A stretch of 64,000 nucleotides of DNA, taken from the NCBI GenBank assembly GCA_964543815.1, contig CAZIZG010000005.1:9424-73423 (forward strand), in the 5' to 3' direction. Each line of letters opens with the position of its first letter. The first letter of the stretch is position 1. Below are positions 5,167 to 52,283 of the stretch, in pieces. The position numbers and the translations under genes were made by a program. Source of the DNA: an uncultured Bdellovibrionales bacterium (GTDB lineage Bacteria; Patescibacteriota; Minisyncoccia; Moranbacterales; UBA1568). The notes beneath the pieces were generated by a model, which saw nothing but the letters and a program-made list of their open reading frames with translations, did not search any database and was not told the origin of the DNA.

Positions 5167-6415
5167 AAAACACTTCATCCCATTTTTCTTTGCGATTCAG
5201 ACGATTCGTACTCACAAAGCACGAACAGCTTTGGCGCTCCTGGGAGTAGTGATTGGTGTCTTTGCGGTAGTAGTAGTGACGAGTCTCGGCGAGGGAGTTA
5301 AAGGTTTTATTTTGGGACAGGTAGAAAGTTTCGGGAGCGATCTTATCCAGGTGGAAGTCAAAATTCCCAACACAACCGCCATGTCGAGTGAGAACTCAAC
5401 TGGTCGAGCCCAAGGGACTCAGATTACGACGCTTACTGTCAAAGATGGTGAAGCTATTGAAAAACTTCCTAATGTGGCAGCGGTCTACGCTGGCACTATC
5501 GGACAGGAGCGGGCCACGTATGACGCAACCGGGAAGCGTATCTCACTTTTTGGAACCGGAGCGGATGTGGCTGAAGTAGACAGTAATTTGAAACTTGAGA
5601 GCGGGCGCTTCTTTACGAGTGAAGAGGACAGGAGTCTCGCTCAAGTGGCGGTGCTCGGGAGTGATATCAAAGAAACGTTTTTTGGATCGAGTGAAGCGGT
5701 CGGGCAGTATATTACTCTCAAAGGGGAGAAATATCGAGTTATTGGTGTTTTGGCATCTCGGGGAGCGGTGGCCTTTCTTAATTTCGATACCTTTACCTAT
5801 GTGCCAGTTCAGACGCTACAAAAAAAGTTGCTGGGAGTGGACTACGTGCAGTTTATTTCTGTTAAAATGGAAAATCCGAATCAAGAGGCTGAAACGGTAG
5901 CTGATATCGTAGCTCTGCTTCGAAAGCGTCACGATATTGATAATCCCGACAAAGATGATTTTTCGGTTACCTCAACCAAGGAAGCGCAAAAAACTTTCAG
6001 CGATATCTTGGGATCACTTTCGATACTGCTCCTCGCTCTCACCTCCATCTCACTCGTAGTTGGTGGGGTTGGTATCATGAACGTCATGTACGTATCGGTT
6101 TCTGAACGTACTTCGGAGATTGGGCTGCGTAAAGCAGTAGGGGCAACATCAGGCAGTATTTTGCAACAGTTTTTGTTTGAGGCACTCATCATCACGCTGG
6201 TCGGAGGACTTATCGGGATTCTGTTTGGGACACTCCTGACACTGCTCCTTGGTGTTGTTTTTGCCTCGTTTGGCTTTGCTTTGCCACTCTCGTTTTCTGG
6301 ACAGTCATTTCTCTTGGGAGTGGGGTTTTCGACCGCAGTGGGGATTATTTTTGGTCTGGCGCCGGCCTATCGGGCAGCCTCACTTACTCCGATGGAAGCC
6401 CTCCGTAAGGATTGA
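5159..6415 (+). CDS. ABC transporter permease, MacB/FtsX family (second copy)
   Basis: Same architecture as the first copy (GIMNVMYVSVSERTSEIGLRKAVG); the ATG at 5159 overlaps the upstream stop, so the six-frame ORF start at 5027 is rejected. Confidence 0.8.
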   Translation: MNKKHFIPFFFAIQTIRTHKARTALALLGVVIGVFAVVVVTSLGEGVKGFILGQVESFGSDLIQVEVKIPNTTAMSSENSTGRAQGTQITTLTVKDGEAIEKLPNVAAVYAGTIGQERATYDATGKRISLFGTGADVAEVDSNLKLESGRFFTSEEDRSLAQVAVLGSDIKETFFGSSEAVGQYITLKGEKYRVIGVLASRGAVAFLNFDTFTYVPVQTLQKKLLGVDYVQFISVKMENPNQEAETVADIVALLRKRHDIDNPDKDDFSVTSTKEAQKTFSDILGSLSILLLALTSISLVVGGVGIMNVMYVSVSERTSEIGLRKAVGATSGSILQQFLFEALIITLVGGLIGILFGTLLTLLLGVVFASFGFALPLSFSGQSFLLGVGFSTAVGIIFGLAPAYRAASLTPMEALRKD

Positions 6416-9148: not shown

Positions 9149-9655
9149 ATGAAAATTCCAGTTCGTAAGTCGCTTTATTTTTTTCTTCGCTTCTTTAGTT
9201 TTCCGGTAGTGTGGGAGACATCAGTTGGGGCAGTGGTTTTCCGGATGGTGGACGGGAAGCGGCAGTATCTTCTCCTTCATTATCCGAGCGGTCACTATGA
9301 TTTTGCCAAAGGTCATGTGGAGGCGGGAGAAACTGAGGAAATGACGCTCAGGCGGGAAACAGAGGAGGAGACCGGTATCACGGATCTCGAAGTATTTCCT
9401 CACCGGGTGAGTATTCGCTATTTCTATGTGGCCAAGGGAACGGAGCGGGAGAAGCGGATCAAGCAGGTAGCGGGGCTGTGGATTTTCAAGGAAGTACACT
9501 TCTATCCAGCTCTGACCAAAACGGAAGGAGTGACCATTTCGCATGAACATCAGGGCTATGCTTGGGAGCCTTTTGAGGTAGCCAAGAAACGGGTCACCTT
9601 TGATAACGCCAAGCGGGTACTTCGTGAGACGGAGAAGTATCTTCAAGGGATATGA
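9149..9655 (+). CDS. NUDIX hydrolase
   Basis: NUDIX box GHVEAGETEEMTLRRETEEETGI. The true start may be downstream of 9149 because the N-terminal 30 aa look non-native. Confidence 0.75.
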   Translation: MKIPVRKSLYFFLRFFSFPVVWETSVGAVVFRMVDGKRQYLLLHYPSGHYDFAKGHVEAGETEEMTLRRETEEETGITDLEVFPHRVSIRYFYVAKGTEREKRIKQVAGLWIFKEVHFYPALTKTEGVTISHEHQGYAWEPFEVAKKRVTFDNAKRVLRETEKYLQGI

Positions 9656-9662
9656 AATAAAG

Positions 9663-9702
9663 AAGCCGTGCGGTAGAGTGATCTGATGCACGGCTTTTTT
9701 TG
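9663..9702 (+). terminator. Rho-independent terminator after the NUDIX gene
   Basis: AAGCCGTGC / GCACGGCTT stem followed by a T7 run. Confidence 0.6.
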
Positions 9703-14447: not shown

Positions 14448-15344
14448 ATGCTCAAAATCATTCAGAAAAGAAAATACGCCTATATCCTCTCCGGCCTACT
14501 GACGCTCGCGAGTGTAGCAGTATTAATCGTCTGGGGTTTGAAGCCGGGAATTGATTTCAAAGGTGGGACGCTCATGGAGGTTCAGTTTTCGGTAGAGCCC
14601 GTGCCGACGGTACAGACGATTGAATCAACGCTGGCTGATTTGTCTCTCAAGAGTCTGACGGTGCAGCCGACGGAAAATCGCGGTATGCTCCTTCGTTATC
14701 TCGCTTCTGATGAAGTTGCCAATAATCAGGTGCTTGCCAAGCTGACGAGTCTCGATACCGATATTAAACAGCTTCGGACAGACTTTATCGGTGGTTCTGT
14801 TTCAGACCAAATCAAACGCAATGCCTTTACGGGTGTTATTCTTTCGATTATCGGTATCGCACTCTATATCGCCTGGGCCTTCCGGCGGGTATCGGGTGTT
14901 GTTACATCCTGGGAATACGGTCTCGGAGCGGTCATTGCGCTGGCTCATGATATCATCATCGTGATCGGTATCTTCGTACTTCTTGGTCACTACTATGATA
15001 TCGAGATTGGTATCCCTTTCATCGCAGCACTGCTGACTATCTTGGGGTACTCGGTCAATGACACCATCGTTGTATACGATCGGGTACGGGAGAACCTCAT
15101 GCGTTCCAGTCGCAAGGAAGATTTTGAAAATATCGTCAATCGTTCGCTCAACGAGACGCTGGGACGCTCTATCAACACCTCGATGACGGTTATCATTACG
15201 CTTGTGGCCATTGTGCTATTCGGTGGCGAGAGCATCAAATATTTCGGTGTAGCACTCCTTTCTGGTGTGGTGTTTGGTACGTACTCGTCCATTTATATTG
15301 CCTCGGCCCTCTTGGTATCACGCTATAAGATGAAGACTGAATAA
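14448..15344 (+). CDS. secF: Protein translocase subunit SecF
   Basis: 298 aa with SecF topology and motifs (IDFKGGT, six TMs), immediately downstream of secD. Confidence 0.9.
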   Translation: MLKIIQKRKYAYILSGLLTLASVAVLIVWGLKPGIDFKGGTLMEVQFSVEPVPTVQTIESTLADLSLKSLTVQPTENRGMLLRYLASDEVANNQVLAKLTSLDTDIKQLRTDFIGGSVSDQIKRNAFTGVILSIIGIALYIAWAFRRVSGVVTSWEYGLGAVIALAHDIIIVIGIFVLLGHYYDIEIGIPFIAALLTILGYSVNDTIVVYDRVRENLMRSSRKEDFENIVNRSLNETLGRSINTSMTVIITLVAIVLFGGESIKYFGVALLSGVVFGTYSSIYIASALLVSRYKMKTE

Positions 15345-25064: not shown

Positions 25065-26438
25065 ATGGGGCTGCGGGATAAAAAAAGGAAATCGATATCG
25101 TCAGTTTTGTTGGCGAGCTTGTCTTTTGTGATGTTGGCTGGAGCAGCTTTGTTTGTCACCGCTCATACGCAGTCTTGGGTGCCGGTTTCATTGGCTAAAG
25201 GGGATGACAACGGGGATGATGGTGATGACGACGGAGGCGATGATGGTGATAGCAAGGATGATAAAGAGAAGGAGAGCGAAAAAAAGAAATCAGAGGCTGA
25301 CAAGAAAGCCAAAGAGGAGGCAAAGAAGAAGGCTGAACGAGAGTCTGAAGCTGCCAAAAAGTCGGCTGAACAAATGCGGAAGTCTTCAGGAAGTGGAAAC
25401 GAGGCGGAAAACGAATCTGACGATATCAATGATGATCATGGTATCGAGGTTGAGGATGAGGACGAGAATGAGAGTGGCGATGATAACGGAATGTTTAAGG
25501 ATCGCACCAAGACTCTTTCTAAACTTGATGAAGAGTTAGCGAAAGCTGAAAAGGAAATTCTTGAGAAGCAGGCCGAGGGTGTTGATGTAACAGCCGCTCT
25601 TGCTCGATTGGCTGAGGCCAAGGCGAAAGCTGGTACAGTCGGCGCTGCTTTTGACGCCAATGACTTGGCAGCAGTGAAGGATCTTGGCCAAGAAGTGAAG
25701 AAACTTGCTCATTTTGCCAGTCACGACGATCTTCATGATGCCAAAAAGGTCGCGGAGAATGTAGCGCGTGTAGCGAAGCGCATCGCTCAAACAACCGGAA
25801 AAATATCGCTTCTTGAAGCGGTCGGAGGTGATGGTTCAGCATTTAAGGCTTCCTTGGCAACGCTCGAGACGGAATACGCCGGGCTCAAAGAAACCGTCAC
25901 AGCCGGGAGTTATGATGTGGTAGCTATGGAAGCTTCACTTCGTACCCTTGAGCGCAAGGTGAAGGCTGTTAAGAGTAGTGTTGAAGCCGCTATCTATGCC
26001 CTGGGTGGTACTGATAGTAAATACGATGATGATTATGAGGATGAGTCTCATGACGTGGCGGAGCATTTAAATGATGTGGCGGAGATCGAGGATGATCATG
26101 TCGGCTTGGTTATCCATGGCATTGCCGAGGATCACAAGAGTTCTGCCAAAAAGGTTGGAGAGGTGGTTACTAAGATTGACAATCGTAACCCGGTACTGCA
26201 GACACTTCTTGGTTCGAGCAGTAGTGATTTGAACGAGCTTGAGCAGGAGATTGCTGCTAATAAGTCACGGGTTGAGATGTTGACTCAGGCAGCGAACTCC
26301 GTGTCAGACCCGGATGTTCAGACAATGCTGTTTGACCAGATAGAGACCCTCAAAGAACAGACTGCCAAGCTCGAAACATTTGTAGAAGGTCAGCGTGACC
26401 GCCTCAGCGTCCTTGGTTGGTTCTTTAAGTTGTTCTAA
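25065..26438 (+). CDS. Hypothetical membrane-anchored, highly charged (D/E/K-rich) coiled-coil surface protein
   Basis: 457 aa with an N-terminal hydrophobic anchor, a poly-acidic DDNGDDGDDDGGDDGD tract, a KE-rich low-complexity region and alpha-helical heptad-like repeats. Confidence 0.5.
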   Translation: MGLRDKKRKSISSVLLASLSFVMLAGAALFVTAHTQSWVPVSLAKGDDNGDDGDDDGGDDGDSKDDKEKESEKKKSEADKKAKEEAKKKAERESEAAKKSAEQMRKSSGSGNEAENESDDINDDHGIEVEDEDENESGDDNGMFKDRTKTLSKLDEELAKAEKEILEKQAEGVDVTAALARLAEAKAKAGTVGAAFDANDLAAVKDLGQEVKKLAHFASHDDLHDAKKVAENVARVAKRIAQTTGKISLLEAVGGDGSAFKASLATLETEYAGLKETVTAGSYDVVAMEASLRTLERKVKAVKSSVEAAIYALGGTDSKYDDDYEDESHDVAEHLNDVAEIEDDHVGLVIHGIAEDHKSSAKKVGEVVTKIDNRNPVLQTLLGSSSSDLNELEQEIAANKSRVEMLTQAANSVSDPDVQTMLFDQIETLKEQTAKLETFVEGQRDRLSVLGWFFKLF

Positions 26439-26452
26439 AGGAAGTCTGCTAA

Positions 26453-26486
26453 AAAAGAAAAGAGAGCTCGAGCTCTCTTTTCTTTT
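26453..26486. terminator. 34-bp perfect palindrome (AAAAGAAAAGAGAGCTCGAGCTCTCTTTTCTTTT), probable bidirectional terminator
   Basis: Perfect 15-bp arms around a CTCGAG centre with T-run/A-run arms; lies 15 nt after the stop of the upstream gene. Confidence 0.55.
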
Positions 26487-35243: not shown

Positions 35244-35782
35244 AGGTCTTTTTTCTCCGCAGTGCATTTTTTATACTTCTCGTTTTTCTCCAGATTTCTT
35301 TTTTTGGTATCATTTTCCCTTGGTTCCATGCCCCATTATTTTTGATAGGTGTTGTTGTTGCTATGACGCTTGTGCGGAGTTTTCCCGATGTGCTTTTTAT
35401 CGTGCTTCCGGTTACGCTTCTCTTTGATGTTGCTTCGAGTGGTACGATTACCTGGTTCTCCGTTTTTGCAATCCTGACATCTTATGTGACGAGTTTTCTT
35501 TTGAGGCGGCTTATGATTGATCATCGAGGGATGGGGCTGGTGCTGTATGCTCTTGAGTCGTACGGAGCAACACTGCTGTACCAAGGAGTTTTCTTTGCTC
35601 TGCTCTATCGTCAGACAATAGTTGATCATACCGTAATGATTTCAAATTTGCCCTCTGTTGATAGTCTGCTGTTCGCTCTTGTTTCGTTCATCCCTGTTTT
35701 TTTTCTGACATACGTCATAGTACGACGGTTCGAGGATTTCATTGAGGTGCTCAATCAGAAGCAGTTCCGCGGTATTCGCTAA
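35240..35782 (+). CDS. mreD: Rod shape-determining protein MreD
   Basis: 180-aa polytopic membrane protein overlapping the mreC stop and preceding PBP2. Confidence 0.6.
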   Translation: MKVFFLRSAFFILLVFLQISFFGIIFPWFHAPLFLIGVVVAMTLVRSFPDVLFIVLPVTLLFDVASSGTITWFSVFAILTSYVTSFLLRRLMIDHRGMGLVLYALESYGATLLYQGVFFALLYRQTIVDHTVMISNLPSVDSLLFALVSFIPVFFLTYVIVRRFEDFIEVLNQKQFRGIR

Positions 35783-35786
35783 TCGT

Positions 35787-37673
35787 ATGGGAATATTTGT
35801 CCGTAAAGGCATATTTTTACACAACAAAGGCGGTATTGAAATTGATGATGCCGTATTGACCATGACCGAGAAGGATGCTGTCAAAATGGAATGGCCGCTC
35901 AATCGTTCCCTTTCTCTTTGGTTCTTCTTTGTAATGGGGCTATTTCTTGCGGTATTGGGAGGCCGAGTTTTCTATCTCAGTATTATTAAGGGCGAGGAGT
36001 ATAGCTCCATAGCGCTTCGTAATAGTTTGCGGGCTATTATTATTCCGGCGCCTCGCGGCATTATGTATGATACGTTTGGTAAACCTCTGGTACAGAATAC
36101 CCCCAGTATGGATGCGGTCTTGATCCCAGCTGATATGCCAACTGATGGGGAGGCACTTAGCATGTTAAAGCGCTTGATAGCCGATACCTTTTCCCTTGAT
36201 GGAGCAGTTATAGATGATGTTTTTGACCGTATTGATCGGCGTTCGACCCTACCACTTCTTCTCAAGGAACGTATCAGTCAGGAAGAAACGCTTTTGTACC
36301 TGAGTCGCAGCCGAGATTTGGTTGGAATCAACTTGTATAAAACAACCAAACGTAATTACATCGACAGCCTTATTTTTTCCCATGTCTTGGGATACGAAGG
36401 AAAAGTACGTAAGGAAGAACTTGTCACACATCCGGATTATTTGTTTACCGACTCTATTGGAAAGCAGGGCATAGAGAAAAGTTATGAGGAGTATCTGCGA
36501 GGCAAACACGGTTTTGAGCGGGTCGAGGTAGATGCTTTTGGTAAGGTCAAAAAGGAACTTGGCATAGTAGAACCGACGCCAGGTCAGGATCTCATACTCA
36601 ACATCGATGCTGATTTACAGAAGAAGCTTTTTGATAGTTTACAAGCCCTCCTTGAAAAAAATGACTTGAAACGAGCAGCGGCTGTGGCGCTCGACCCCCG
36701 GAATGGGGCCGTGCGGGCACTGGTGAGTTTGCCGAGTTTTGATAATAATTTGTTTGCTTCTGGCATTTCAACTGAGGCCTATCGAGCGCTCGCATCAGAT
36801 CCAGCCGAGCCACTTTTTAATCGAGTAGTATCAGGAGAATATCCTCCCGGTTCAACTATTAAACCAGTACTTGCCAGTGCGGCCCTTGCTGAGGGAGTCA
36901 TTGATGAACGTACGCAGATAGAGAGTCGTGGCGGGATTAGCGTGGGCAAATTCTTTTTTGGTGATTGGAAGGTTCATGGCTTTACTGATATCAGGCGGGC
37001 CATTGCGGTCTCGAGCGACGTGTTCTTTTATTCGGTAGGAGGTGGATATGGCAATACGCTCGGACTGGGTATGGATCGAATGAAGAAATACGAAGAATTA
37101 TTTGGATATGGATCCAAAACAGGAATTGATCTTGGTGGTGAAGCCAGTGGTCTTATCCCGGATTCGGCCTGGAAACTCAAGAAAATTGGCGAGCGATGGT
37201 ATGTCGGCGATGACTATCATGCGGCTATTGGTCAGGGTTTTGTCACCGCGACACCACTTCAGATTCTCAACTCTATCGCGGCTATTGCCAATGGAGGAAC
37301 GTTATATACACCACGTATCGTTGGTCAGATTCGTTCGTTTGATGGTAAAGTGACAGTGCTGCCACCAAAGATACTTCGTGCGGGTTTCATTGATTCAGAT
37401 ATTCTTCGTATCGTACGAGAGGGTATGCGTGAGACAGTGACAGAAGGGACGGCTCAGCCGCTTCGCGACCTTCCAGTAGCAGTGGCTGGCAAGACGGGAA
37501 CAGCTCAGTTTGGGACCGGAAAAAATACTCACGGTTGGTTTGTTTCTTTTGCGCCGTTTGAGGCACCAGAACTTTCTATGATTGTCCTAGTGGAGGGACA
37601 AGGTGAAGAGGGCTACAATGCGGTACCGGTAACCAAAGATGTCTATGAGTGGTACTTTACGCGGAATAAATAG
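35787..37673 (+). CDS. mrdA: Penicillin-binding protein 2 (elongation transpeptidase)
   Basis: N-terminal TM, PBP dimerisation domain, transpeptidase motifs STIKP, SSD and KTGTAQ. Start chosen at ATG 35787, just after the mreD stop. Confidence 0.85.
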   Translation: MGIFVRKGIFLHNKGGIEIDDAVLTMTEKDAVKMEWPLNRSLSLWFFFVMGLFLAVLGGRVFYLSIIKGEEYSSIALRNSLRAIIIPAPRGIMYDTFGKPLVQNTPSMDAVLIPADMPTDGEALSMLKRLIADTFSLDGAVIDDVFDRIDRRSTLPLLLKERISQEETLLYLSRSRDLVGINLYKTTKRNYIDSLIFSHVLGYEGKVRKEELVTHPDYLFTDSIGKQGIEKSYEEYLRGKHGFERVEVDAFGKVKKELGIVEPTPGQDLILNIDADLQKKLFDSLQALLEKNDLKRAAAVALDPRNGAVRALVSLPSFDNNLFASGISTEAYRALASDPAEPLFNRVVSGEYPPGSTIKPVLASAALAEGVIDERTQIESRGGISVGKFFFGDWKVHGFTDIRRAIAVSSDVFFYSVGGGYGNTLGLGMDRMKKYEELFGYGSKTGIDLGGEASGLIPDSAWKLKKIGERWYVGDDYHAAIGQGFVTATPLQILNSIAAIANGGTLYTPRIVGQIRSFDGKVTVLPPKILRAGFIDSDILRIVREGMRETVTEGTAQPLRDLPVAVAGKTGTAQFGTGKNTHGWFVSFAPFEAPELSMIVLVEGQGEEGYNAVPVTKDVYEWYFTRNK

Positions 37674-37705
37674 CATATTAATGGCTTTATAAAGCCATTA
37701 ATATG
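37674..37705. repeat. 32-bp perfect palindrome (CATATTAATGGCTTTATAAAGCCATTAATATG) abutting the greA promoter
   Basis: Perfect 15-bp arms with no downstream T-run; it ends 4 nt before the -35 TTGACA of the greA promoter. Confidence 0.55.
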
Positions 37706-45635: not shown

Positions 45636-46301
45636 ATGGGAAATCAGAATCTTTTCGTGTTGCTTCGCTCGAAATTTGGTACCCTGGTCATCTGGGGATT
45701 GCTTTTCGGCGCCTTGGCATTCTTCGGTCTTCTTATGACCGAAAAGCCATTTCAGACCAAGATGGATTTCTTGGTAGTGCAGGCTAATGCGACCAATCAG
45801 GATTTCTATACCCAGTTTAAATCCTCTGAGTATCTGGGCAAGATTTTGTCTGAGGCGGTGTACAGCGATCGCTTTATTGATGCCCTTGTTGAAACTGGCA
45901 AGGTAAATAAAGAATTCCTGCCTTTTGATAAACAGCAACGCCTCGCTACTTGGAGCAAGATGGTCCAGGTTGATAAGAACCTTGAACTCGGTATCATCAG
46001 TGTGACTGTCAAAGGTGATCGTGAACGCGATGTTGCTCGAATCATGGATGGTATCGCCGAGGTACTGACGACGCGCAATTCCCTCTTCCGTGGTGGTGAT
46101 GAAAAGAGCGTGGAGATCCGAATTCTTTCCGGCCCCATTCTTGAGCAGAATCCTGGGATGGCCAAGACACTGAAAGTGGTGCTCGTTGCCTTCCTCGCTG
46201 GACTGTTTGTTTCAGCCTTTGTCATCATCGTGAAAGCTGAATCCAAAACGAAGCCAGTCATTCGTCCGGATGGTCTTCATTTGAACGATACCATAGTCTA
46301 A
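45636..46301 (+). CDS. Wzz/polysaccharide co-polymerase-like protein (paralog 2 of 3)
   Basis: 221 aa with TM helices at both ends; the periplasmic region resembles the proteins at 22446 and 60811 (QANATNQDFYTQFKSSEYLGKIL). Confidence 0.45.
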   Translation: MGNQNLFVLLRSKFGTLVIWGLLFGALAFFGLLMTEKPFQTKMDFLVVQANATNQDFYTQFKSSEYLGKILSEAVYSDRFIDALVETGKVNKEFLPFDKQQRLATWSKMVQVDKNLELGIISVTVKGDRERDVARIMDGIAEVLTTRNSLFRGGDEKSVEIRILSGPILEQNPGMAKTLKVVLVAFLAGLFVSAFVIIVKAESKTKPVIRPDGLHLNDTIV

Positions 46302-46454
46302 GTAATTCCTTGATACTTGTGGCTTTCTGGTCATAAGTATCCTGGGAAGAGAGCGGTGTAGCGTTATCGTCATCACTGCTTTCTTCCTAGGATAGATTCG
46401 AAAGTGTAGTTTAACAATCAGTCTATCAGTTTTCAACTTCAACCTGGAGGTCGT

Positions 46455-47582
46455 ATGACCATGTTTCATAAGCTTTTGCTTCTGATCGTGTACGCGGCCT
46501 TCGCTGGTTGTGCCACGAATCCGCGTTTTGCCACTGAACTGCCCGCGAGTCATATCTCGGGTCAGAAGGTGTGTGAAGTGCCACAGCATTGGGAGGCGCT
46601 GGCGCTGAAAGGCGTCAATATGAAGTCGCTTACCAAGGCGAATGTGATTCAAGTGAGGATTCCGCCACAATGGGTGGGGGATGCGCTCGGGTGGTTTGTC
46701 GAGAGCGAGGAAGCTCGTACACTCGAACACTATCCGCGTATGACATGGCAAGCGCTGGTGGTAAATCAGCGTGGCGAGAAACAGATGTTTCCCGCCGTCA
46801 TGAAGAACCCGCTCGTTTCACCGATACTGACGATCATCATTGCAGACCCGGCATTTTCGATGGGGGATGAAGTGAACGTGTATGTGCCATCGGGCGCCTA
46901 CACCAAGCTTCTGACTACCACCGGTGATATGCTGCGTCTACCGATGAGTATGGACTGCCTTGGATTGGTTGATGCCGAATTCGTTCGGTCATTTCCGTCC
47001 AAGGCTCGAGTGCTGCCGGCAGGTGAAAGTCTGCTTGCGGGTATTCGGAAGGACTTCTCTGAGCCATCACTGCAAAGCGATGGCACGGTCTATTCCATCA
47101 GTCCGTTGGCGCTCACTCCGCAAGTGGTGGGTGACCTCCGTCAGGTGACACAGGGTGAGCGTATCGCTGAACGTGGTTTGCCGATTGCCTTTCCTCCAGG
47201 ATTGGGCACGGCAATTTCGCTCACTGTTGCTCTCGCGAGCACTGGTGACGATAAGTACGTCGGACCTTTCGGGGAACGGCTGTACTCACCACCTGAGGTG
47301 AATGCTGCGCTCGCTCGATATCTGCGCGTTTACAACTCGCTTAAGAATGACCTGGAATGGCGTCTGGGGATACCTCCTTCGGATGCTGTTGCTCCTCACC
47401 TGACCTTTGACGGACGCAAGTCCGGCTGGGAAATCGGTGAAGAGATGGTCTTTCGAGTGAGGGCCATGTGGGAAGTGCTCGATCAGTTGAAAGAGCGCTT
47501 TCTGTCTCGCACCAAGGAGAAAGGTGCACCTGCAATGAAAGAAGCAACTCAGACCGGGCTGCTTCCGAGCAGCTCACCTTAA
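46455..47582 (+). CDS. Hypothetical lipoprotein (island gene 1)
   Basis: Signal peptide with lipobox-like AAFAGC; GGAGG SD 6 nt upstream; GC-rich codon usage; no catalytic motifs recognised. Confidence 0.5.
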   Translation: MTMFHKLLLLIVYAAFAGCATNPRFATELPASHISGQKVCEVPQHWEALALKGVNMKSLTKANVIQVRIPPQWVGDALGWFVESEEARTLEHYPRMTWQALVVNQRGEKQMFPAVMKNPLVSPILTIIIADPAFSMGDEVNVYVPSGAYTKLLTTTGDMLRLPMSMDCLGLVDAEFVRSFPSKARVLPAGESLLAGIRKDFSEPSLQSDGTVYSISPLALTPQVVGDLRQVTQGERIAERGLPIAFPPGLGTAISLTVALASTGDDKYVGPFGERLYSPPEVNAALARYLRVYNSLKNDLEWRLGIPPSDAVAPHLTFDGRKSGWEIGEEMVFRVRAMWEVLDQLKERFLSRTKEKGAPAMKEATQTGLLPSSSP

Positions 47583-47602
47583 ACCCTTTGGAAGGAGTTC
47601 CC

Positions 47603-49120
47603 ATGAAATGGCTTCCCTCTCTCCTGCTGCTCCTCGGAGCGGCGGGTGCGTGGGCTGGTCAACCACCAGACCACAGGATCGAGCCAGGTGAAACGCTTGG
47701 CAAGATCGCGCAGAAGTACGGTTACGACTACAAGGTGCTTGGCGCCTTCAATGGTCTGACCAATCCGAACAAGATCCAGGCAGGAGCGATGATCCGGTTT
47801 CCGGCTCGTGGTGCCTCGCCTGCGATCAAGTCAGAACTTTCGTGCATTACGCTCGGTGCTGCTCCCTTCAACCCGGAGCACGTACTGAAGCGGACGCTCG
47901 AGGGTATCGACCTGCTTCAGACGCTGACCCCTCAACAACGGGAGTTGGCCAAGAACAAGGTTCTGCTCGGCGAGGTCGCAACGAGGAACGAATTGGTGGG
48001 GCAGCAAATCTTCACGGAAATGTTGTACCAATCCAAGTTCGGCAAGAAGCAAGTGGTGCACGTGTTCGGCAAGCCGATTTGCAGCCCGGAACAAGGGGGG
48101 CAGCCGGAGGTGATGAACACGTATGACCTGGGTGAGGGGGTATTTCTCTCCATCCCACGTCGGTGCGGCAACCCGTCAGTTTTCACCAAGCCGGTGAAGC
48201 CGACAACTCCGCCCCCGCCACCTCCTCCGCCACCAGCTACCACTCCCGATCCGACTCCTCCGGTGACATCACAACCCGATGAACCCGTAGAAGTTGAGCG
48301 GGTGGCACGTGACTACGATTGGGACGCGGGTCTCTTCGTAGGTGGCGACAAGGACGTGCGCTTTGCCGGTGGTGAAGGTGCTGGTTACCCGGTCATCAAG
48401 TATTACGACTGGGGACGCTACGCCCTCGGTGGTGGTGGTTCGTTTAGCCTCTGGAACGGCGGTACGCCTGATGGGTACCGCTACCGGGGTGAAACGGCTG
48501 CCTTTGGTCTGGCTCAGAAGTTTTCGTTCACAGGCGGTCGTGATCTGGGAGTCAAGTTCCCGATGTACGGTGACCTGTGGACGAGGGGTCATGACGCGAG
48601 TGGCAAGTACCAGCAGAAGACGCATGCCAGCATGCTCTGCGCTTCAGTGAGTTATACCGATGCTTCCCGTGAAAAGGAAGGCAAGACGGTGGCTCCCGAG
48701 TGGCAGCTGTGGGCATCGTTCTGCGACCCGTTCTCGCAGACCAAGTCGCACAGTTACGACGGCAAGCCTCTCGATGCGGCGACGATTCCCAACGTGAAGT
48801 ACGTGGCGGGCGTCGGCGGTCGGGTGATTCTGTCGAAGAATCTGGGCGACAGCGGTCTCGCGGCGAAGTTGCAACCGTTTGTGGAAGTGGGTGTCAATCA
48901 GACGGCGCCTAACCCACTCTCTGGACACGCCTACATCGGCCTGCGAACGGTCAACAAGGTGTGGGGTTGTGGAATCGGCGTGCACTACGCTGAGACCGGC
49001 AGTCTCCCCGGAGCTACCTGTACGTACGACCTCGGTCGTGACGTCAAGCTCCGGATCCAGAAGGAACGGTGGGATGCAATGATTCGGAGCCTCGAAGCTC
49101 TGGGTGTTGCTACCGACTGA
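47603..49120 (+). CDS. Secreted LysM-domain protein with poly-proline linker and a C-terminal Gly/Tyr/Trp-rich beta-rich domain (island gene 2)
   Basis: Signal peptide MKWLPSLLLLLGAAGAWA; LysM motif HRIEPGETLGKIAQKYGYDYKVLGAFNGLTNPNKIQAGAMIRFP; PTTPPPPPPPPPATTPDPTPP linker; GGAAGGAG SD. Start at 47603 rather than the ORF-track start. Confidence 0.65.
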   Translation: MKWLPSLLLLLGAAGAWAGQPPDHRIEPGETLGKIAQKYGYDYKVLGAFNGLTNPNKIQAGAMIRFPARGASPAIKSELSCITLGAAPFNPEHVLKRTLEGIDLLQTLTPQQRELAKNKVLLGEVATRNELVGQQIFTEMLYQSKFGKKQVVHVFGKPICSPEQGGQPEVMNTYDLGEGVFLSIPRRCGNPSVFTKPVKPTTPPPPPPPPPATTPDPTPPVTSQPDEPVEVERVARDYDWDAGLFVGGDKDVRFAGGEGAGYPVIKYYDWGRYALGGGGSFSLWNGGTPDGYRYRGETAAFGLAQKFSFTGGRDLGVKFPMYGDLWTRGHDASGKYQQKTHASMLCASVSYTDASREKEGKTVAPEWQLWASFCDPFSQTKSHSYDGKPLDAATIPNVKYVAGVGGRVILSKNLGDSGLAAKLQPFVEVGVNQTAPNPLSGHAYIGLRTVNKVWGCGIGVHYAETGSLPGATCTYDLGRDVKLRIQKERWDAMIRSLEALGVATD

Positions 49121-49262
49121 TAGACACTCCTCTCTCATGTAAAGTCCGAGACAGAATAAGTCTCAAGGCGAGCCTCTCAAGGGGCCGCCTCATAAAAAGT
49201 GTACGCTCTGACGTACTGGCTCATGGAGAGTAGGAAAACAGTCGCGACATCGTTCGCACAAT

Positions 49263-49306
49263 CAGGGCAGGAAGTTCATCCGAACGACCTGCCCTTGATC
49301 TTTTTA
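49263..49306 (+). terminator. Rho-independent terminator after the LysM gene
   Basis: AGGGCAGG / CCTGCCCT stem with 16-nt loop, followed by TTGATCTTTTTATA. Confidence 0.6.
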
Positions 49307-49332
49307 TACCTCCATAAAGCCATAATTTAGAT

Positions 49333-49361
49333 ATTGACAAAACAGGGAAAAGGGTGTATAC
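49333..49361 (+). promoter_or_regulatory. Near-consensus sigma70 promoter for island gene 3
   Basis: TTGACA, 17-nt spacer, TATACT; about 125-nt structured leader before the ATG at 49492. Confidence 0.65.
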
Positions 49362-49491
49362 TGAGTCGTTCAGTGGAAATCTCGTATGAGGTATCTCCTG
49401 AACGGTTTCGAATGTGCCTGAACATCCCAACCTCGGTTGGGTCGATGTGTCAGGCACATCTCATCACCCAACCACGTGCAAGGAGCACACC

Positions 49492-50103
49492 ATGTCGAAG
49501 AAGTTCGTTCTCATCGCTCTGACCGCCATCGCGGCCATCACCACCAATGCCTGGTCCGCTGGTGACCCCCTGAAGGGTGTCGCTGGCTACGATTCGGCAG
49601 GTGGCAGCAGCATCACGCTCACGGCCTCGGCGGTGAAGGACAAGTCCTACACCATCACCATCGCCGGCATGATCGGCGTCACGCCCGACGCGCTGAATGG
49701 CCTGACGCCCTACGCCAAGGTCATGGACGTCCCCCTGAAGAAGGAGGTCGGCCTGTACAAGCTGCCCGAAGGAACCAAGGTGTACGCCATGGGCCTGGGC
49801 CGTGACTGGGGCGACATGAGCGAGGAATTGGCCAAGATCGAGCTGGCCAAGGCCAAGGCCGAAGCCACGCTGGGCGCCGACGGCAAGCTCACCTTCACCT
49901 TCACCAAGGGCGAGGAACGCTGCCGGACGGTCAATTGGGTGGCGGTGCTGCCGGGCGGCGAGCAGCGCGCCTGGGGTGGTCATCCCGGCGCCTGGGTTGC
50001 CAAGAACGTGAACGATTCGCCGCGCACCGCCTGGTGCTTCCAAGGCGACAAGGTCGTCCAGATGGACCAGGCCACCAAGGTGGCGCTGGCCGGCAAGAAG
50101 TAG
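49492..50103 (+). CDS. Hypothetical secreted protein, very GC-rich (island gene 3)
   Basis: 203 aa with signal peptide ending AWSAG; AAGGAG SD 6 nt upstream; strongly GC3-biased codons; the long antisense ORF here is a GC artefact. Confidence 0.55.
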   Translation: MSKKFVLIALTAIAAITTNAWSAGDPLKGVAGYDSAGGSSITLTASAVKDKSYTITIAGMIGVTPDALNGLTPYAKVMDVPLKKEVGLYKLPEGTKVYAMGLGRDWGDMSEELAKIELAKAKAEATLGADGKLTFTFTKGEERCRTVNWVAVLPGGEQRAWGGHPGAWVAKNVNDSPRTAWCFQGDKVVQMDQATKVALAGKK

Positions 50104-50146
50104 CCAAGGCGGCCACAGCAGCTCCGCGTCAGTGACGCGGTTCCAA

Positions 50147-50190
50147 AGGAGTTTCAAAGTACACTGTACTGCGAAACTCCTCTTTTTTTA
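50147..50190 (+). terminator. Rho-independent terminator closing the GC-rich island
   Basis: AGGAGTTTC / GAAACTCCT stem with an internally palindromic loop, followed by a T8 run. Confidence 0.7.
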
Positions 50191-50235
50191 TTCAAAAATA
50201 TCCCCAGGCTACTCTTTTCATCTTGCTTCTTTCCT

Positions 50236-50275
50236 AATTCCTCACTTTCTTACGACCGTGAAAAAGTGAGGAATT
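50236..50275. repeat. Hairpin element A (AATTCCTCACTTT-N14-AAAGTGAGGAATT), 3' of the PaaX-like gene
   Basis: Perfect 13-bp inverted repeat with loop CTTACGACCGTGAA; about 90% identical to the reverse complement of element B. Confidence 0.6.
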
Positions 50276-50278
50276 TAT

Positions 50279-50827
50279 TTATTTGAGTTTGAATAACTTT
50301 TTTAACACCGCTTCGTTGTTTATATATTCGGCCGTAATAATGCGGACAAATGGTTCTGCTTGATAGAGTTTTACGAGAGATGTTATCTCCTTTTCACACG
50401 GGAAGGGAAAGATAAACACACTGTGTTGAAGTTCGTGAAATCCTACCGCTTTGAGATGAGAACGGAAGATATCACGGAATTTTCTGTGTTTTTCCGGGAT
50501 ATCGAAGAGTACTAATCGCCACAAGCTATCCCAATGCTTTGGATTCTTTATCTTTATACCTAAAAGTTGGCCAAGAGTCGCGCGTCGTCTGCCCTCGGTG
50601 GTGAGGTGTAGCGAAACTGATCCATCAGAGTGTTTTTTCTCAAAAATGAGTTGGTGCGAATAAAGTGAACGAACAGTCCTGGTTAGATTTGAGTGGTTGA
50701 TTTTCCGCCATTCTTTGCTGGCTAGGCTGAGTATTCGGAAGCTTTGTTTTGGAGAAGAAGAGCAGCTCAGAGCTATTCCGCTGAGAAGGAGTAAGAGGAC
50801 TTTTTCTTGTGCTGTTCCAGGTTTCAT
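50279..50827 (-). CDS. Short PaaX-family-like transcriptional regulator (wHTH N-terminus plus Cas2-like PaaX_C C-terminus)
   Basis: The C-terminal WRLVLFDIPEKHRKFRDIFRSHLKAVGFHELQHSVFIFPFP fits the PaaX_C/Cas2-like pattern. Start chosen at MKPGTAQ (50827) because the ORF-track N-terminal extension runs through hairpin element B. Confidence 0.55.
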   Translation of the reverse strand: MKPGTAQEKVLLLLLSGIALSCSSSPKQSFRILSLASKEWRKINHSNLTRTVRSLYSHQLIFEKKHSDGSVSLHLTTEGRRRATLGQLLGIKIKNPKHWDSLWRLVLFDIPEKHRKFRDIFRSHLKAVGFHELQHSVFIFPFPCEKEITSLVKLYQAEPFVRIITAEYINNEAVLKKLFKLK

Positions 50828-50837
50828 AATTCTTGCT

Positions 50838-50873
50838 TTCCTCATTTTTTCACGGTCGTGAGAAAATGAGGAA
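50838..50873. repeat. Hairpin element B (TTCCTCATTTT-N14-AAAATGAGGAA), 5' of the PaaX-like gene
   Basis: 11-bp inverted repeat with loop TTCACGGTCGTGAG, the reverse complement of the element A loop (one mismatch). Confidence 0.6.
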
Positions 50874-50903
50874 TTAAAGAAGGAGAAAAGTAGCAACGAA
50901 GAA

Positions 50904-52283
50904 TTATTTTTTTTCTGAATTTTTTTGGTCGGAGAGGGCAAGGAGAGCACCAAAGGCGGTGAAGAACAACCATTGGACTGGCGTGTTTTTGAAAATGTTG
51001 TCCGTTAACGCCGAGAGTTCGAGGGTGACGAAGAAAACAAAGAGGATACCAAAGGCAATCTGGAGGGCGCTGCCCCGACGACTGCTTCGGTAACGGCGAA
51101 TGAGTAGTGTAGCGATAGATCCAAGGTAGGTGATGAGTGCCACGACACCAATGACGCCACCTTCGACATAAAATTTTACCAGATCATTATGGGGATCATT
51201 GGGACCGTGATTGGTACCACGGACACTCTCGGAAATTCTGGGAAAGGTATCCATGCCGGCACCGAGGAGTACTCGATTGTCCTGACGGGTAGCGACGGTA
51301 ACATCGTTCCAGAGAGTCTGACGCCAGACAATCGAGCTATCGGGATCAGGATGAAAGCTTTCAGAAACACGTGATTGGAAACTCGGCGAAAAGACAAAGA
51401 GGACGAAAGGAAACAGAAAAAGAGGAAAGAGGAGTAGTCGGTATCGGAAGAGTGCTACGAGAAAAACAAAGAGAAAGAGGGCGACCCAGGCGACCCGGGC
51501 GAAAGTAAGGAGGAGCATGGTGGCAAAAATACCGAGGATAGCGAGCATGAGGATGCGCTTCAGGCCGCTTTCGGCGAAGAGAACGAGGTACATCACCCCA
51601 AAGACAATCATGGCAAAGAGGTAGAGTGAATAGACGTTCGGGTGACTAAAGGTACCAAAGATGCGGAGAATCGAGACATTTTCATCCGAGAGGCCAATAT
51701 GAAACACAAACTGGTAGAGGCCAAAGAGAATCGGGAGGATGCTCGAGATAAAAAAGGCTTGGAGGAGGTATTGAAAATCACGGGTAGTCCGGATAGTAGC
51801 ATAGGCGAGAAAGCCGAGAGCAAACAAATCAAAGACGCGGAGGAGCTCCTGGAGCGTCACTCGAGGATAGAGGGAGTAGAGGAGGGTGAGTCCACCCCAG
51901 AGAAAAATGACTAAAAAAGGGAAGTTGAGAGGAAAGCGTGGGAGAGTGGCACGCTTCAAGATGAGTACGAGTATTCCAAGGAAGGCAATGCCGACGCCGA
52001 CTAGCTGTGAAAGGGTGAGAGTGATGTCGTAGAGAGTGATACTCACGTACTGTGATGAGTAGTCGAGGGACATACGTACGATGACGAGGAGAAAAAGGAG
52101 GAGGAGTGGGGATTGAAACAAGAGAACAAGCGAAAGTATCCCCACGACAAAAAGTGGCGCGATGAAAAGCGAAAGGTGGAGCACCAGTGAGAGCGCGAGA
52201 CCTACCAGGAGCACAGTTCCGAGTGCTCCAATGAGGAACGGGTGACGAAGGACGGCAAAGGGGTTGTCAGTAGGATTTGTCAT
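50904..52283 (-). CDS. O-antigen ligase/polymerase-family (Wzy_C-like) polytopic membrane protein
   Basis: 459 aa, about 12 TMs with a large extracytoplasmic loop carrying conserved His/Arg (GTNHGPNDPHNDLVKFYVEGG), in a polysaccharide gene neighbourhood. Confidence 0.5.
   Translation of the reverse strand: MTNPTDNPFAVLRHPFLIGALGTVLLVGLALSLVLHLSLFIAPLFVVGILSLVLLFQSPLLLLFLLVIVRMSLDYSSQYVSITLYDITLTLSQLVGVGIAFLGILVLILKRATLPRFPLNFPFLVIFLWGGLTLLYSLYPRVTLQELLRVFDLFALGFLAYATIRTTRDFQYLLQAFFISSILPILFGLYQFVFHIGLSDENVSILRIFGTFSHPNVYSLYLFAMIVFGVMYLVLFAESGLKRILMLAILGIFATMLLLTFARVAWVALFLFVFLVALFRYRLLLFPLFLFPFVLFVFSPSFQSRVSESFHPDPDSSIVWRQTLWNDVTVATRQDNRVLLGAGMDTFPRISESVRGTNHGPNDPHNDLVKFYVEGGVIGVVALITYLGSIATLLIRRYRSSRRGSALQIAFGILFVFFVTLELSALTDNIFKNTPVQWLFFTAFGALLALSDQKNSEKK

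Follow-up and report, generated by a model that had tools for sequence, protein, structure and literature searches.

The genes for Tus, RTP and ParB adjoin the sites that their products bind (TerB, TerI-II and parS, respectively), are autoregulated, and are served by a handful of further sites placed irrespective of promoters; in multi-replicon bacteria, site-specific binding proteins of this type have paralogue-specific sites. In REP/RAYT systems (repetitive extragenic palindromes and their associated tyrosine transposases, IS200/IS605-type Y1 HUH proteins of PF01797), a single-copy, vertically inherited gene is flanked by its own palindromic repeat, of which there are tens to hundreds of copies per genome, and Cas2 (PF09827, TIGR01573) is associated with partly palindromic repeats of ~36 bp. 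The described protein closest to the subject of this report is PaaX, the repressor of phenylacetate catabolism (E. coli W, PDB 8a39; Rv0674, PDB 3kfw; TIGR02277), which is built of the domains PF07848, PF20803 and PF08223. It recognises an inverted repeat of 39 bp (TGATTC-N27-GAATCA) and acts as a repressor of its own promoter (PMC9493321). Our subject is a smaller relative, here called mini-PaaX, whose gene lies in a 64,000-nucleotide stretch of contig CAZIZG010000005.1 (positions 9,424 to 73,423 of the forward strand; the whole of this stretch is referred to as the window), from a record titled uncultured Bdellovibrionales bacterium, and is bracketed by two related palindromes, A and B. Autoregulated repressors of the PaaX type are already known, as is the REP/RAYT principle, the alternative considered here, while the mini-PaaX family and its bracket are so far undescribed: the literature searched held no description of this family or architecture, nor of PaaX-like or Cas2-like proteins linked with the Candidate Phyla Radiation (CPR) or with these palindromes.

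We put at about one half the probability that the two palindromes are the cognate DNA sites of the protein encoded between them, as part of a PaaX-type autoregulation. An operator pair had been one of several proposals in the initial annotation of this DNA, and it is the reading most consistent with the PaaX homology of the protein and with the arms of the palindromes, which co-vary with its lineage. The companion proposal, that the regulator would also control divergent neighbours, was not supported, since the neighbouring gene on one side, Wzy_C, is co-directional with mini-PaaX, that on the other side is convergent, and the identity and orientation of neighbours across the family look like background. 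The coordinates of the locus are collected in Table 1.

Table 1. Features of the mini-PaaX locus and its borders in the window.
Feature	Position	Strand	Length	Sequence	Remarks
mini-PaaX gene	50279-50827	minus	182 aa		
Palindrome A	50236-50275			AATTCCTCACTTTCTTACGACCGTGAAAAAGTGAGGAATT	Downstream copy in gene orientation; starts 3-5 nt past the stop codon
Palindrome B	50838-50873			TTCCTCATTTTTTCACGGTCGTGAGAAAATGAGGAA	Upstream copy in gene orientation; ends 10 nt ahead of the ATG
Indel block	50190-50906		717 nt		Outer flank, A, gene, B, outer flank; present in the window, L004 and L005
T7 run	50183-50189				Reads A7 on the gene strand; borders the indel block on the right
T8 run	50907-50914				Reads A8 on the gene strand; borders the indel block on the left; within the last codons of Wzy_C
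Intrinsic terminator	50147-50189	+			Stem 50147-50181 plus T-run; canonical; belongs to the convergent GC-rich gene 49414-50103

Both palindromes lie where they had first been reported, and the outer arms of A are indeed perfect over 13 bp (AATTCCTCACTTT / AAAGTGAGGAATT). The 14-nt loop that had been drawn between these arms is mostly self-complementary, so that A is better described as a near-perfect palindrome of 36-40 bp with the centre ACGACCGT; B likewise runs through its centre with no free 14-nt loop, has 16 bp paired per arm on the + strand, and shows a weaker self-complementarity that reaches 50830-50881. The core of A (50238-50273) is identical to the reverse complement of B at 33/36 positions, compared with 29/36 in direct orientation (82% over 38 nt in the repeat listing). 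One of the three differences between them is a compensatory pair, C8:G29 in place of T8:A29, and a C.A mismatch at pair 12/25 is common to both, which together indicate that the mutual inversion of A and B is real in this window, as had been claimed. A degenerate 36-nt pattern matched only A and B in the 64 kb (0.00 matches expected from 100 shuffles), and a scan of the window for palindromes and half-sites yielded no further related copy, in agreement with the first reading of the sequence. When folded as single strands, all four strands reached -19.9 to -28.2 kcal/mol (z -5.3 to -7.0 relative to shuffles). The initial annotation was also right that neither hairpin is followed by a terminator-type T-run in the gene orientation: reading of the sequence revealed none, and a consensus scan for a G+C-rich hairpin with a U-run placed no terminator at A or B. 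The T-rich stretch that follows A is on the + strand only, where the gene already has a terminator of its own (Table 1). An Rfam scan of 49800-51300 returned only sub-threshold matches to generic, miRNA-like hairpins, and a known RNA motif was set aside. The same was done with an extended inverted repeat of 51 nt (50223-50273 / 50838-50888), of which the 15 extra bases match at only 10/15 and are pyrimidine-rich, so that the extension was not relied upon. As a separate observation, a purine-rich stretch follows both palindromes on the gene strand (50221-50244 and 50828-50844; AGCAAGAATTATGAAA after B, AGGAAAGAAGCAAGATGAAAA after A). This would fit a diverged tandem duplication of the palindrome plus the 5' end of the gene, although these are low-complexity sequences and their likeness may be chance.

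The gene itself can be read from two starts. An in-frame ATG at 50843-50845 (minus-strand start 50845), inside palindrome B, was chosen by the gene callers and gives a form of 188 aa (P0001, MRKARIMKPG...), and the 182-aa start used here is backed by the family alignment. That the C-terminus is Cas2-like was borne out, while its assignment to PaaX_C was not: residues 97-171 correspond to the middle, Cas2-like domain of PaaX (PaaX_M, PF20803), matched with an E-value of 1.5e-21 and 76.7 bits against a cut-off of 24. The PaaX_C effector domain (PF08223) had no match, the protein stopping at residue 182, and the N-terminal PaaX domain (PF07848) had no Pfam match at E<=0.01. The Cas2 models fell below threshold (20.6 against 23.8 for PF09827 and 24.3 against 24.5 for TIGR01573), and the full-length PaaX model TIGR02277 scored 28.9 bits against its cut-off of 264.55. 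An AlphaFold model (predicted local distance difference test score, pLDDT, 81) has N-terminal helices and a beta-hairpin wing, and then a beta-alpha-beta-beta-alpha-beta domain. Foldseek matched it best to Cas2 chains, and also to E. coli PaaX 8a39, over 143 aligned columns, and to Rv0674; a profile search with residues 18-92 gave weak matches to the winged-helix proteins QsrR and F93, and residues 1-88 are accordingly described as a winged-helix-like N-domain. The winged-helix-like domain precedes the Cas2-like one, as in PaaX, and the PaaX_M domain and fold matches, with no PaaX_C, point to a PaaX homologue reduced to its DNA-binding and dimerisation parts, one which would have no phenylacetyl-CoA sensing. 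As in Cas2, the C-terminal half carries the beta-1/alpha-1 motif WRxVxFDIPE..R..R..L...GF..LQxSVF. Residue D109, invariant in the family, was aligned with the beta-1 aspartate of Cas2 by position arithmetic on the profile match. Phmmer with the Cas2-like half had no match among the PDB sequences. No transposase, recombinase or HUH/Y1 (PF01797) domain was found in the protein by Pfam/NCBIfam, PADLOC or PHROGs scans. PADLOC gave only partial matches to Cas2 models (residues 97-150) and PHROGs nothing meaningful, and a link to defence or to phages was rejected.

The bracket of palindromes proved to be a property of a large family. There were 34 close homologues, and at least 548 relatives in species-representative genomes, essentially all in metagenome-assembled genomes (MAGs) of Patescibacteria, with two or three paralogues in several genomes. 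A profile search of 1.84 billion cluster representatives found 383 clusters at E<=1e-30 and 3100 at E<=1e-10, and among the 2.9 million viral contigs of IMG/VR there was one relative (L203 5001-5432, a partial match to residues 38-179; L numbers denote homologous loci and contigs). The family appears to be restricted to Patescibacteria. Several of the MAG records that carry it (L009, L013, L019, L054, L071, L086, L087 and L055) are titled 'uncultured Bdellovibrionales' or 'Micavibrio sp.', titles that, judged by gene content and by the family distribution, look like mis-assignments.

In the first five homologue loci, two of which have wholly different gene neighbourhoods, a palindrome stood on either side of the gene. 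The check for further copies in related genomes that had been suggested thus gave a double answer, gene-associated pairs in most loci and, for one palindrome type treated below, solo copies as well. The up- and downstream copies match each other (at 20 or more of 28 central positions) in 38/50 evaluable loci, many of them at 28/28. The upstream copy precedes the ATG by 8-136 nt across loci (by 8-20 nt in many, including the window), and the downstream copy begins between -6 and ~100 nt past the stop. In the 879 kb of 58 loci, the copies nearly always number just two, one on either side of the gene, with only ~6 extras in all, and when long loop-less palindromes of any sequence were collected from 1.18 Mb, 76/143 had a family gene no more than 220 nt away. 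The two copies are mutually inverted in 11 loci, direct in 7 and symmetric in 19, by which mutual inversion, or an asymmetric crossover core, was rejected as a family feature. One subfamily of 54-58% identity (L007, L008) is set among ruvA/ruvB/ruvC, yebC and a TrmB-family gene, and in L008 a third palindrome copy (6314-6343) lies between the TrmB-family gene and ruvA.

The palindromes of the family have a conserved centre, CG-RY-CG or GC-N4-GC (for example GCGATCGC, GCTATAGC and GCGATAGC), and lineage-specific arms that change with the protein. The arms differ even for paralogues of one genome; in L053, where 4 kb separate two family genes, either gene has a distinct palindrome pair of its own. 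Their symmetry is also maintained as they change, for among 102 distinct sites the mirrored positions underwent 354 double-sided changes, a value that was reached in 0/500 shuffles (137 in shuffled sets), and the signal collapsed in slid controls. It is in these respects that mini-PaaX departs from PaaX. A long inverted repeat with self-repression is known for PaaX and would be the analogous arrangement here, whereas the mini-PaaX site is fully symmetric, spacer included, has a second copy directly after the stop codon, has arms that follow the protein lineage, and belongs to a family that is apparently Patescibacteria-only, with no paa genes nearby.

The presence of the bracket and its gene varies at the orthologous site, for which contigs were traced from homologues of the adjacent Wzy_C. 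The gene order there is conserved (GT4, methyltransferase, Wzy_C, terminator and GC-rich convergent genes), and within it three states occur. The site is full (palindrome, gene, palindrome) in the window, in L004 (Wzy_C 72% identical to that of the window) and in L005 (67%); it is empty in L208 (94%), L204 (71%), L205 (66%) and L207 (59%); and it holds a solo palindrome in L209 (74%) and L206 (56%). The L209 palindrome, TTCCTCTTATTCTCACGGCCGCGAGAATAAGAGGAA, is of the same lineage as those of the window, and stands there without the gene, between outer flanks homologous to those of the window. The one in L206 (4388-4427) is different: a near-perfect palindrome of 40 nt, AAGTCTTACTATTTAAGCAATTGCACAAATAGTAAGACTT, with the GC-N4-GC centre GCAATTGC, which matches neither of the family paralogues fetched from the same genome (L024, L035) and may be the solo remnant of a diverged module. 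A presumed breakpoint at the downstream palindrome between L005 and L006 was discarded, the loci being identical and differing only in gene calling. The three states show the two palindromes to be part of one unit with the gene, a unit that relatives can do without, and reveal one origin of solo palindromes.

The closest empty site, L208, lacks exactly the indel block of Table 1, and its flanks beyond the block are nearly identical to those of the window. This discrete indel, together with the solo palindrome at the same site, is in keeping with part of an earlier suggestion, that of a mobile cassette with terminal inverted repeats. The rest of that suggestion fared less well: the palindromes are not the termini, the indel borders at 50190 and 50906 lying 46 and 33 nt outside them, the window sequence holds no direct repeat (target-site duplication) that abuts them, and no transposase domain was found. 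Nor do the paralogues of one genome, which are divergent and have different palindromes, resemble copies of a terminal-inverted-repeat transposon or a miniature inverted-repeat transposable element. The T7 and T8 runs form the sole direct repeat at the indel borders and could be either microhomology for a deletion or a duplicated target, both of which fit. The history is better constrained by the divergence of the gene, since mini-PaaX has diverged from that of the window in step with Wzy_C (71% with 72% in L004, 66% with 67% in L005), which makes an ancestral module that was lost repeatedly the parsimonious history. Deletion between the A/T runs, and recombination between the palindromes that leaves a solo copy, would be two routes of such loss. 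All the events reconstructed at the Wzy_C site are losses, with no insertion.

Solo palindromes also occur elsewhere in relatives. The palindrome type CATAATT-N3-CG-N2-CG-N3-AATTATG, common to four species, was searched for in metagenome contigs and was found in 114 loci, only 32 of which contain the family gene. Nearly all are true, longer palindromes in intergenic DNA; of 133 sites, 37 adjoin a family gene and 96 do not, 50 of the latter having at least 900 nt on either side. Decayed genes were rejected as their origin, for 93/96 have no family fragment within 800 nt, and one contig of 788 kb has three sites over a span of 170 kb, including the one at the gene. The solo sites lie between co-directional, convergent and divergent genes in the proportions 37/14/10, as compared with a background by length of 61/20/19%, and the genes next to them are unrelated to each other, so that promoter operators were rejected as an explanation of the solo sites. 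In co-directional gaps they are a median of 74 nt from the upstream stop and 139 nt from the next start, and near some family genes palindromes punctuate successive genes (L106, L110, L112/L018, L174). L018 offers two further details. About eight 16-nt units (GGAAAAAAGATATGAT) form a tandem repeat at 9466-9580, upstream of the family gene, and two solo palindromes (9590-9670 and 15095-15170) have a ~70-nt repeat in common (AAAAAGCCAAAGAGCCAAAAAGCCAAAACAAAAAACGGC plus palindrome), from which it follows that some solo copies are part of larger duplicated units.

If A and B are cognate sites, the protein would be a truncated PaaX-type regulator, with a winged-helix reading domain, a Cas2-like dimerisation domain and no effector-binding C-domain, and would bind as a dimer, as PaaX does on its 39-bp operator. 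Its two winged helices might read the outer arms of 13-16 bp, with the Cas2-like dimer over the CG-RY-CG centre. The upstream copy directly adjoins the start codon and the ribosome-binding site (GAGGA at 50839-50843 on the minus strand, in the proximal arm of B, is the likely Shine-Dalgarno sequence), such that its occupancy, or a hairpin formed in the read-through transcript of Wzy_C, would shut off expression of the gene. The downstream copy could be a second site that closes a loop of ~600 bp or blocks transcription from the other side. The gene and both sites would then be a self-contained, dispensable unit of ~0.7 kb, vertically inherited, repeatedly lost, and reduced to a solo palindrome by recombination between its two palindromes.

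Several observations weigh against autoregulation from cognate sites. The consensus scan found no sigma-70-like promoter next to B, and a downstream operator that hugs the stop codon is without obvious regulatory reason. The background-like placement of the solo copies should not be expected of a promoter-operator regulon. In an analysis of mutual information between protein columns and arm bases there was no concentration in the N-domain (mean 2.69, against 2.56 for the C-domain), although such values are dominated by phylogeny and entropy and hence uninformative. A further observation concerns the two copies of one locus, which differ by 25 compensated double changes and 44 single ones, when a rough calculation from the observed divergence predicts ~1-2 compensated changes if mirrored positions were independent. 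Since the same protein serves both copies, these compensated changes are not explained by selection on dimer binding alone, and their excess suggests that pairing within a strand is either constrained or the means by which some mechanism works. Either the pairing itself matters, as hairpin or cruciform, or the sites are made symmetric by quasi-palindrome template switching, an established mutational mechanism that could give the compensated pattern without selection.

The main rival to this reading is an arrangement like REP/RAYT, although we consider it unlikely. The Cas2-fold protein, unrelated to the RAYTs, would recognise the hairpin or cruciform, possibly cut it, and spread or homogenise its own repeat, the copies at the gene being the masters and the solo copies their progeny. 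It would fit with a single-copy, vertically inherited gene that has its own repeat on both sides, inverted in the window; with a repeat that differs by protein lineage and from paralogue to paralogue; with the 96/133 CATAATT-type sites that are intergenic, without promoter preference and in nearly every case without gene remnant; with within-genome copies that are near-identical and symmetric and show the excess of compensated changes; and with the invariance of D109 at the position of the Cas2 aspartate. The REP-like elements named as a third option by the initial annotation are accordingly favoured by the CATAATT-type relatives, in which most copies are solo and intergenic, and disfavoured by the window, where there are two copies and both are at the gene. 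Other evidence speaks against the REP/RAYT analogy more broadly. The protein has a winged helix and a Cas2-like fold in place of HUH or catalytic-tyrosine motifs, and no other known transposase or recombinase domain; the nuclease activity of Cas2 is weak and dispensable in its own system; the palindromes are perfectly symmetric, with no asymmetric cleavage motif or conserved asymmetric tetranucleotide; the copies are few, the extras in the 879 kb of flanks being those counted above and the 64-kb window having none; and the Wzy_C site records losses and no insertions. The broader conclusion, a Patescibacteria-specific Cas2-fold family in which each member maintains, and occasionally spreads, a private palindromic repeat, as an analogue of REP/RAYT on a different fold, is tentative and rather doubtful.

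The placement of the solo copies could also be that of boundary elements, in which the bound palindromes serve, irrespective of their orientation, as roadblocks or insulators that separate the transcription units of compact CPR genomes, with the protein's own gene insulated on both sides. Solo copies do occur in all intergenic classes, including between long convergent genes; their shift towards the upstream stop in co-directional gaps, and the punctuation of successive genes near family genes, are of the kind that a boundary would leave; and symmetry suits a block that works in either orientation. The idea is nonetheless pure inference, without precedent in the PaaX family, copies are too sparse for terminators in general use, a canonical terminator already stands behind the convergent gene beside A, and close relatives dispense with the module, all of which makes it improbable. 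The comparison with Tus, RTP and ParB, to which mini-PaaX has no homology, has its limits: no partner ATPase or CTPase is present, and symmetric sites would not give the polar fork trap of Tus and RTP.

Intrastrand pairing could instead be exploited in the transcript, and an RNA-level function was weighed in which the 5' hairpin masks the ribosome-binding site, the 3' hairpin stabilises or marks the transcript, or the two form a 5'-3' panhandle, the protein being an RNA-binding protein or RNase. Both A and B fold strongly as RNA, B includes GAGGA and is 10 nt ahead of the ATG, the near-identity of A to the reverse complement of B makes a long 5'-3' duplex possible, and some Cas2 and VapD relatives are RNases (Foldseek matches 3exc and 3ui3). 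What would be expected of RNA was mostly not seen, however. The sense-strand mismatches gave no clear strand signature (G.T against A.C, 50 against 36 overall, which is not decisive), B folds better antisense (-28.2 against -21.7 kcal/mol), family members place the palindrome anywhere between 8 and more than 130 nt from the ATG, the two copies keep no fixed orientation to each other, solo copies are found between convergent genes, a setting in which transcription may run on either strand, and no Rfam family was matched, so that we regard this function as quite improbable.

Recombination sites of an invertible or excisable segment, in the manner of hix, lox or pdif, would have symmetric arms and a 2-bp asymmetric core (AC against GT), inverted around the gene. 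The centre is in fact GACC upstream and GGTC downstream in the window, L004, L019, L024 and L053, excision in relatives is clean, and a solo site exists. Against these stand the want of any recombinase domain in the scans of the protein, a gene orientation relative to Wzy_C that is constant in all contigs of this species and its relatives (it is identical in L001-L006, unlike a Hin/hix segment), the mixed orientation of copies in the family, and indel borders outside the palindromes, and we hold such a segment to be very improbable. That A and B are generic hairpins (REP or terminators) bracketing the gene by chance is scarcely credible, for although these intergenic regions often contain long palindromes and terminators (a pair of unrelated ones in the window is described below), the family-wide association contradicts it, with the bracket present in most of ~50 independent loci of quite different neighbourhoods, its arms lineage-specific, both palindromes gained or lost together with the gene, and no T-run after either hairpin.

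A large part of bacterial diversity belongs to the Patescibacteria (CPR), which have tiny genomes and few recognisable regulators, and to our knowledge almost nothing is known of their gene control. Each protein of the family can be read beside its own predicted site, which provides, from at least 548 loci, a ready-made table of protein-to-site specificity. Should the proteins be regulators, they would open a way into the transcription control of CPR and supply, as a library made by nature, orthogonal repressor/operator pairs. Should they maintain or spread their palindromes, they would be a second, independent invention of the REP/RAYT principle, on the Cas2 fold. A protein that is the guardian of its repeat would represent a new class of domesticated selfish element, or else a free-standing relative of the partnership of Cas2 and palindromic repeats in CRISPR (clustered regularly interspaced short palindromic repeats) adaptation, and would bear on the origin of the association of Cas2 with such repeats. 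Mini-PaaX differs from Cas2 in its fusion to a DNA-binding domain, in having no cas1, other cas genes or CRISPR array, and in that its two repeats are 600 bp apart around a gene and not a spacer. The full, solo and empty states at one site also show how solitary palindromes can arise in these genomes.

The genes within +/-10 kb of mini-PaaX code for glycosyltransferases, a methyltransferase, Wzy_C, a LysM protein, RRF and others, with no paa catabolic genes and no cas genes among them, and the contig that carries the locus, which is of Patescibacteria (Moraniibacteriota-like) origin, is present in several assemblies. Two hairpins follow the convergent gene, the first at 50114-50130 (CCGCGTCAGTGACGCGG) and the second being the terminator with its T7; in L004, L005, L204, L205, L208 and L209 both recur with their sequence or architecture conserved, and the terminator belongs to the conserved flank outside the module, kept in relatives with and without it. 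The module had been described as sitting exactly at the edge of a GC-rich island, and the block at 46000-50100 does have a GC content of 0.54-0.59, against ~0.47, and codes for a 375-aa protein, a LysM protein and a 229-aa secreted-looking protein. This location is coincidental. Homologous GC-rich genes follow Wzy_C in all the relatives examined (L005, L204-L209), with and without the module, and the block is therefore an old conserved anomaly in low-GC genomes, not a recent island, and was not imported by the module.

Two further palindromes of the window have no relation to the gene. A perfect one of 32 nt (CATATTAATGGCTTTATAAAGCCATTAATATG, 37674-37705) stands directly after the open reading frame (ORF) 35742-37673, has no T-run, and is unrelated in sequence to A and B. 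The other, a perfect palindrome of 34 nt (AAAAGAAAAGAGAGCTCGAGCTCTCTTTTCTTTT, 26453-26486), begins 15 nt past the stop of ORF 25065-26438; with its A-tract, stem and T-tract it looks like a bidirectional intrinsic terminator, and its centre, GCTCGAGC, is similar to some of the family palindrome centres, such as that of L066.

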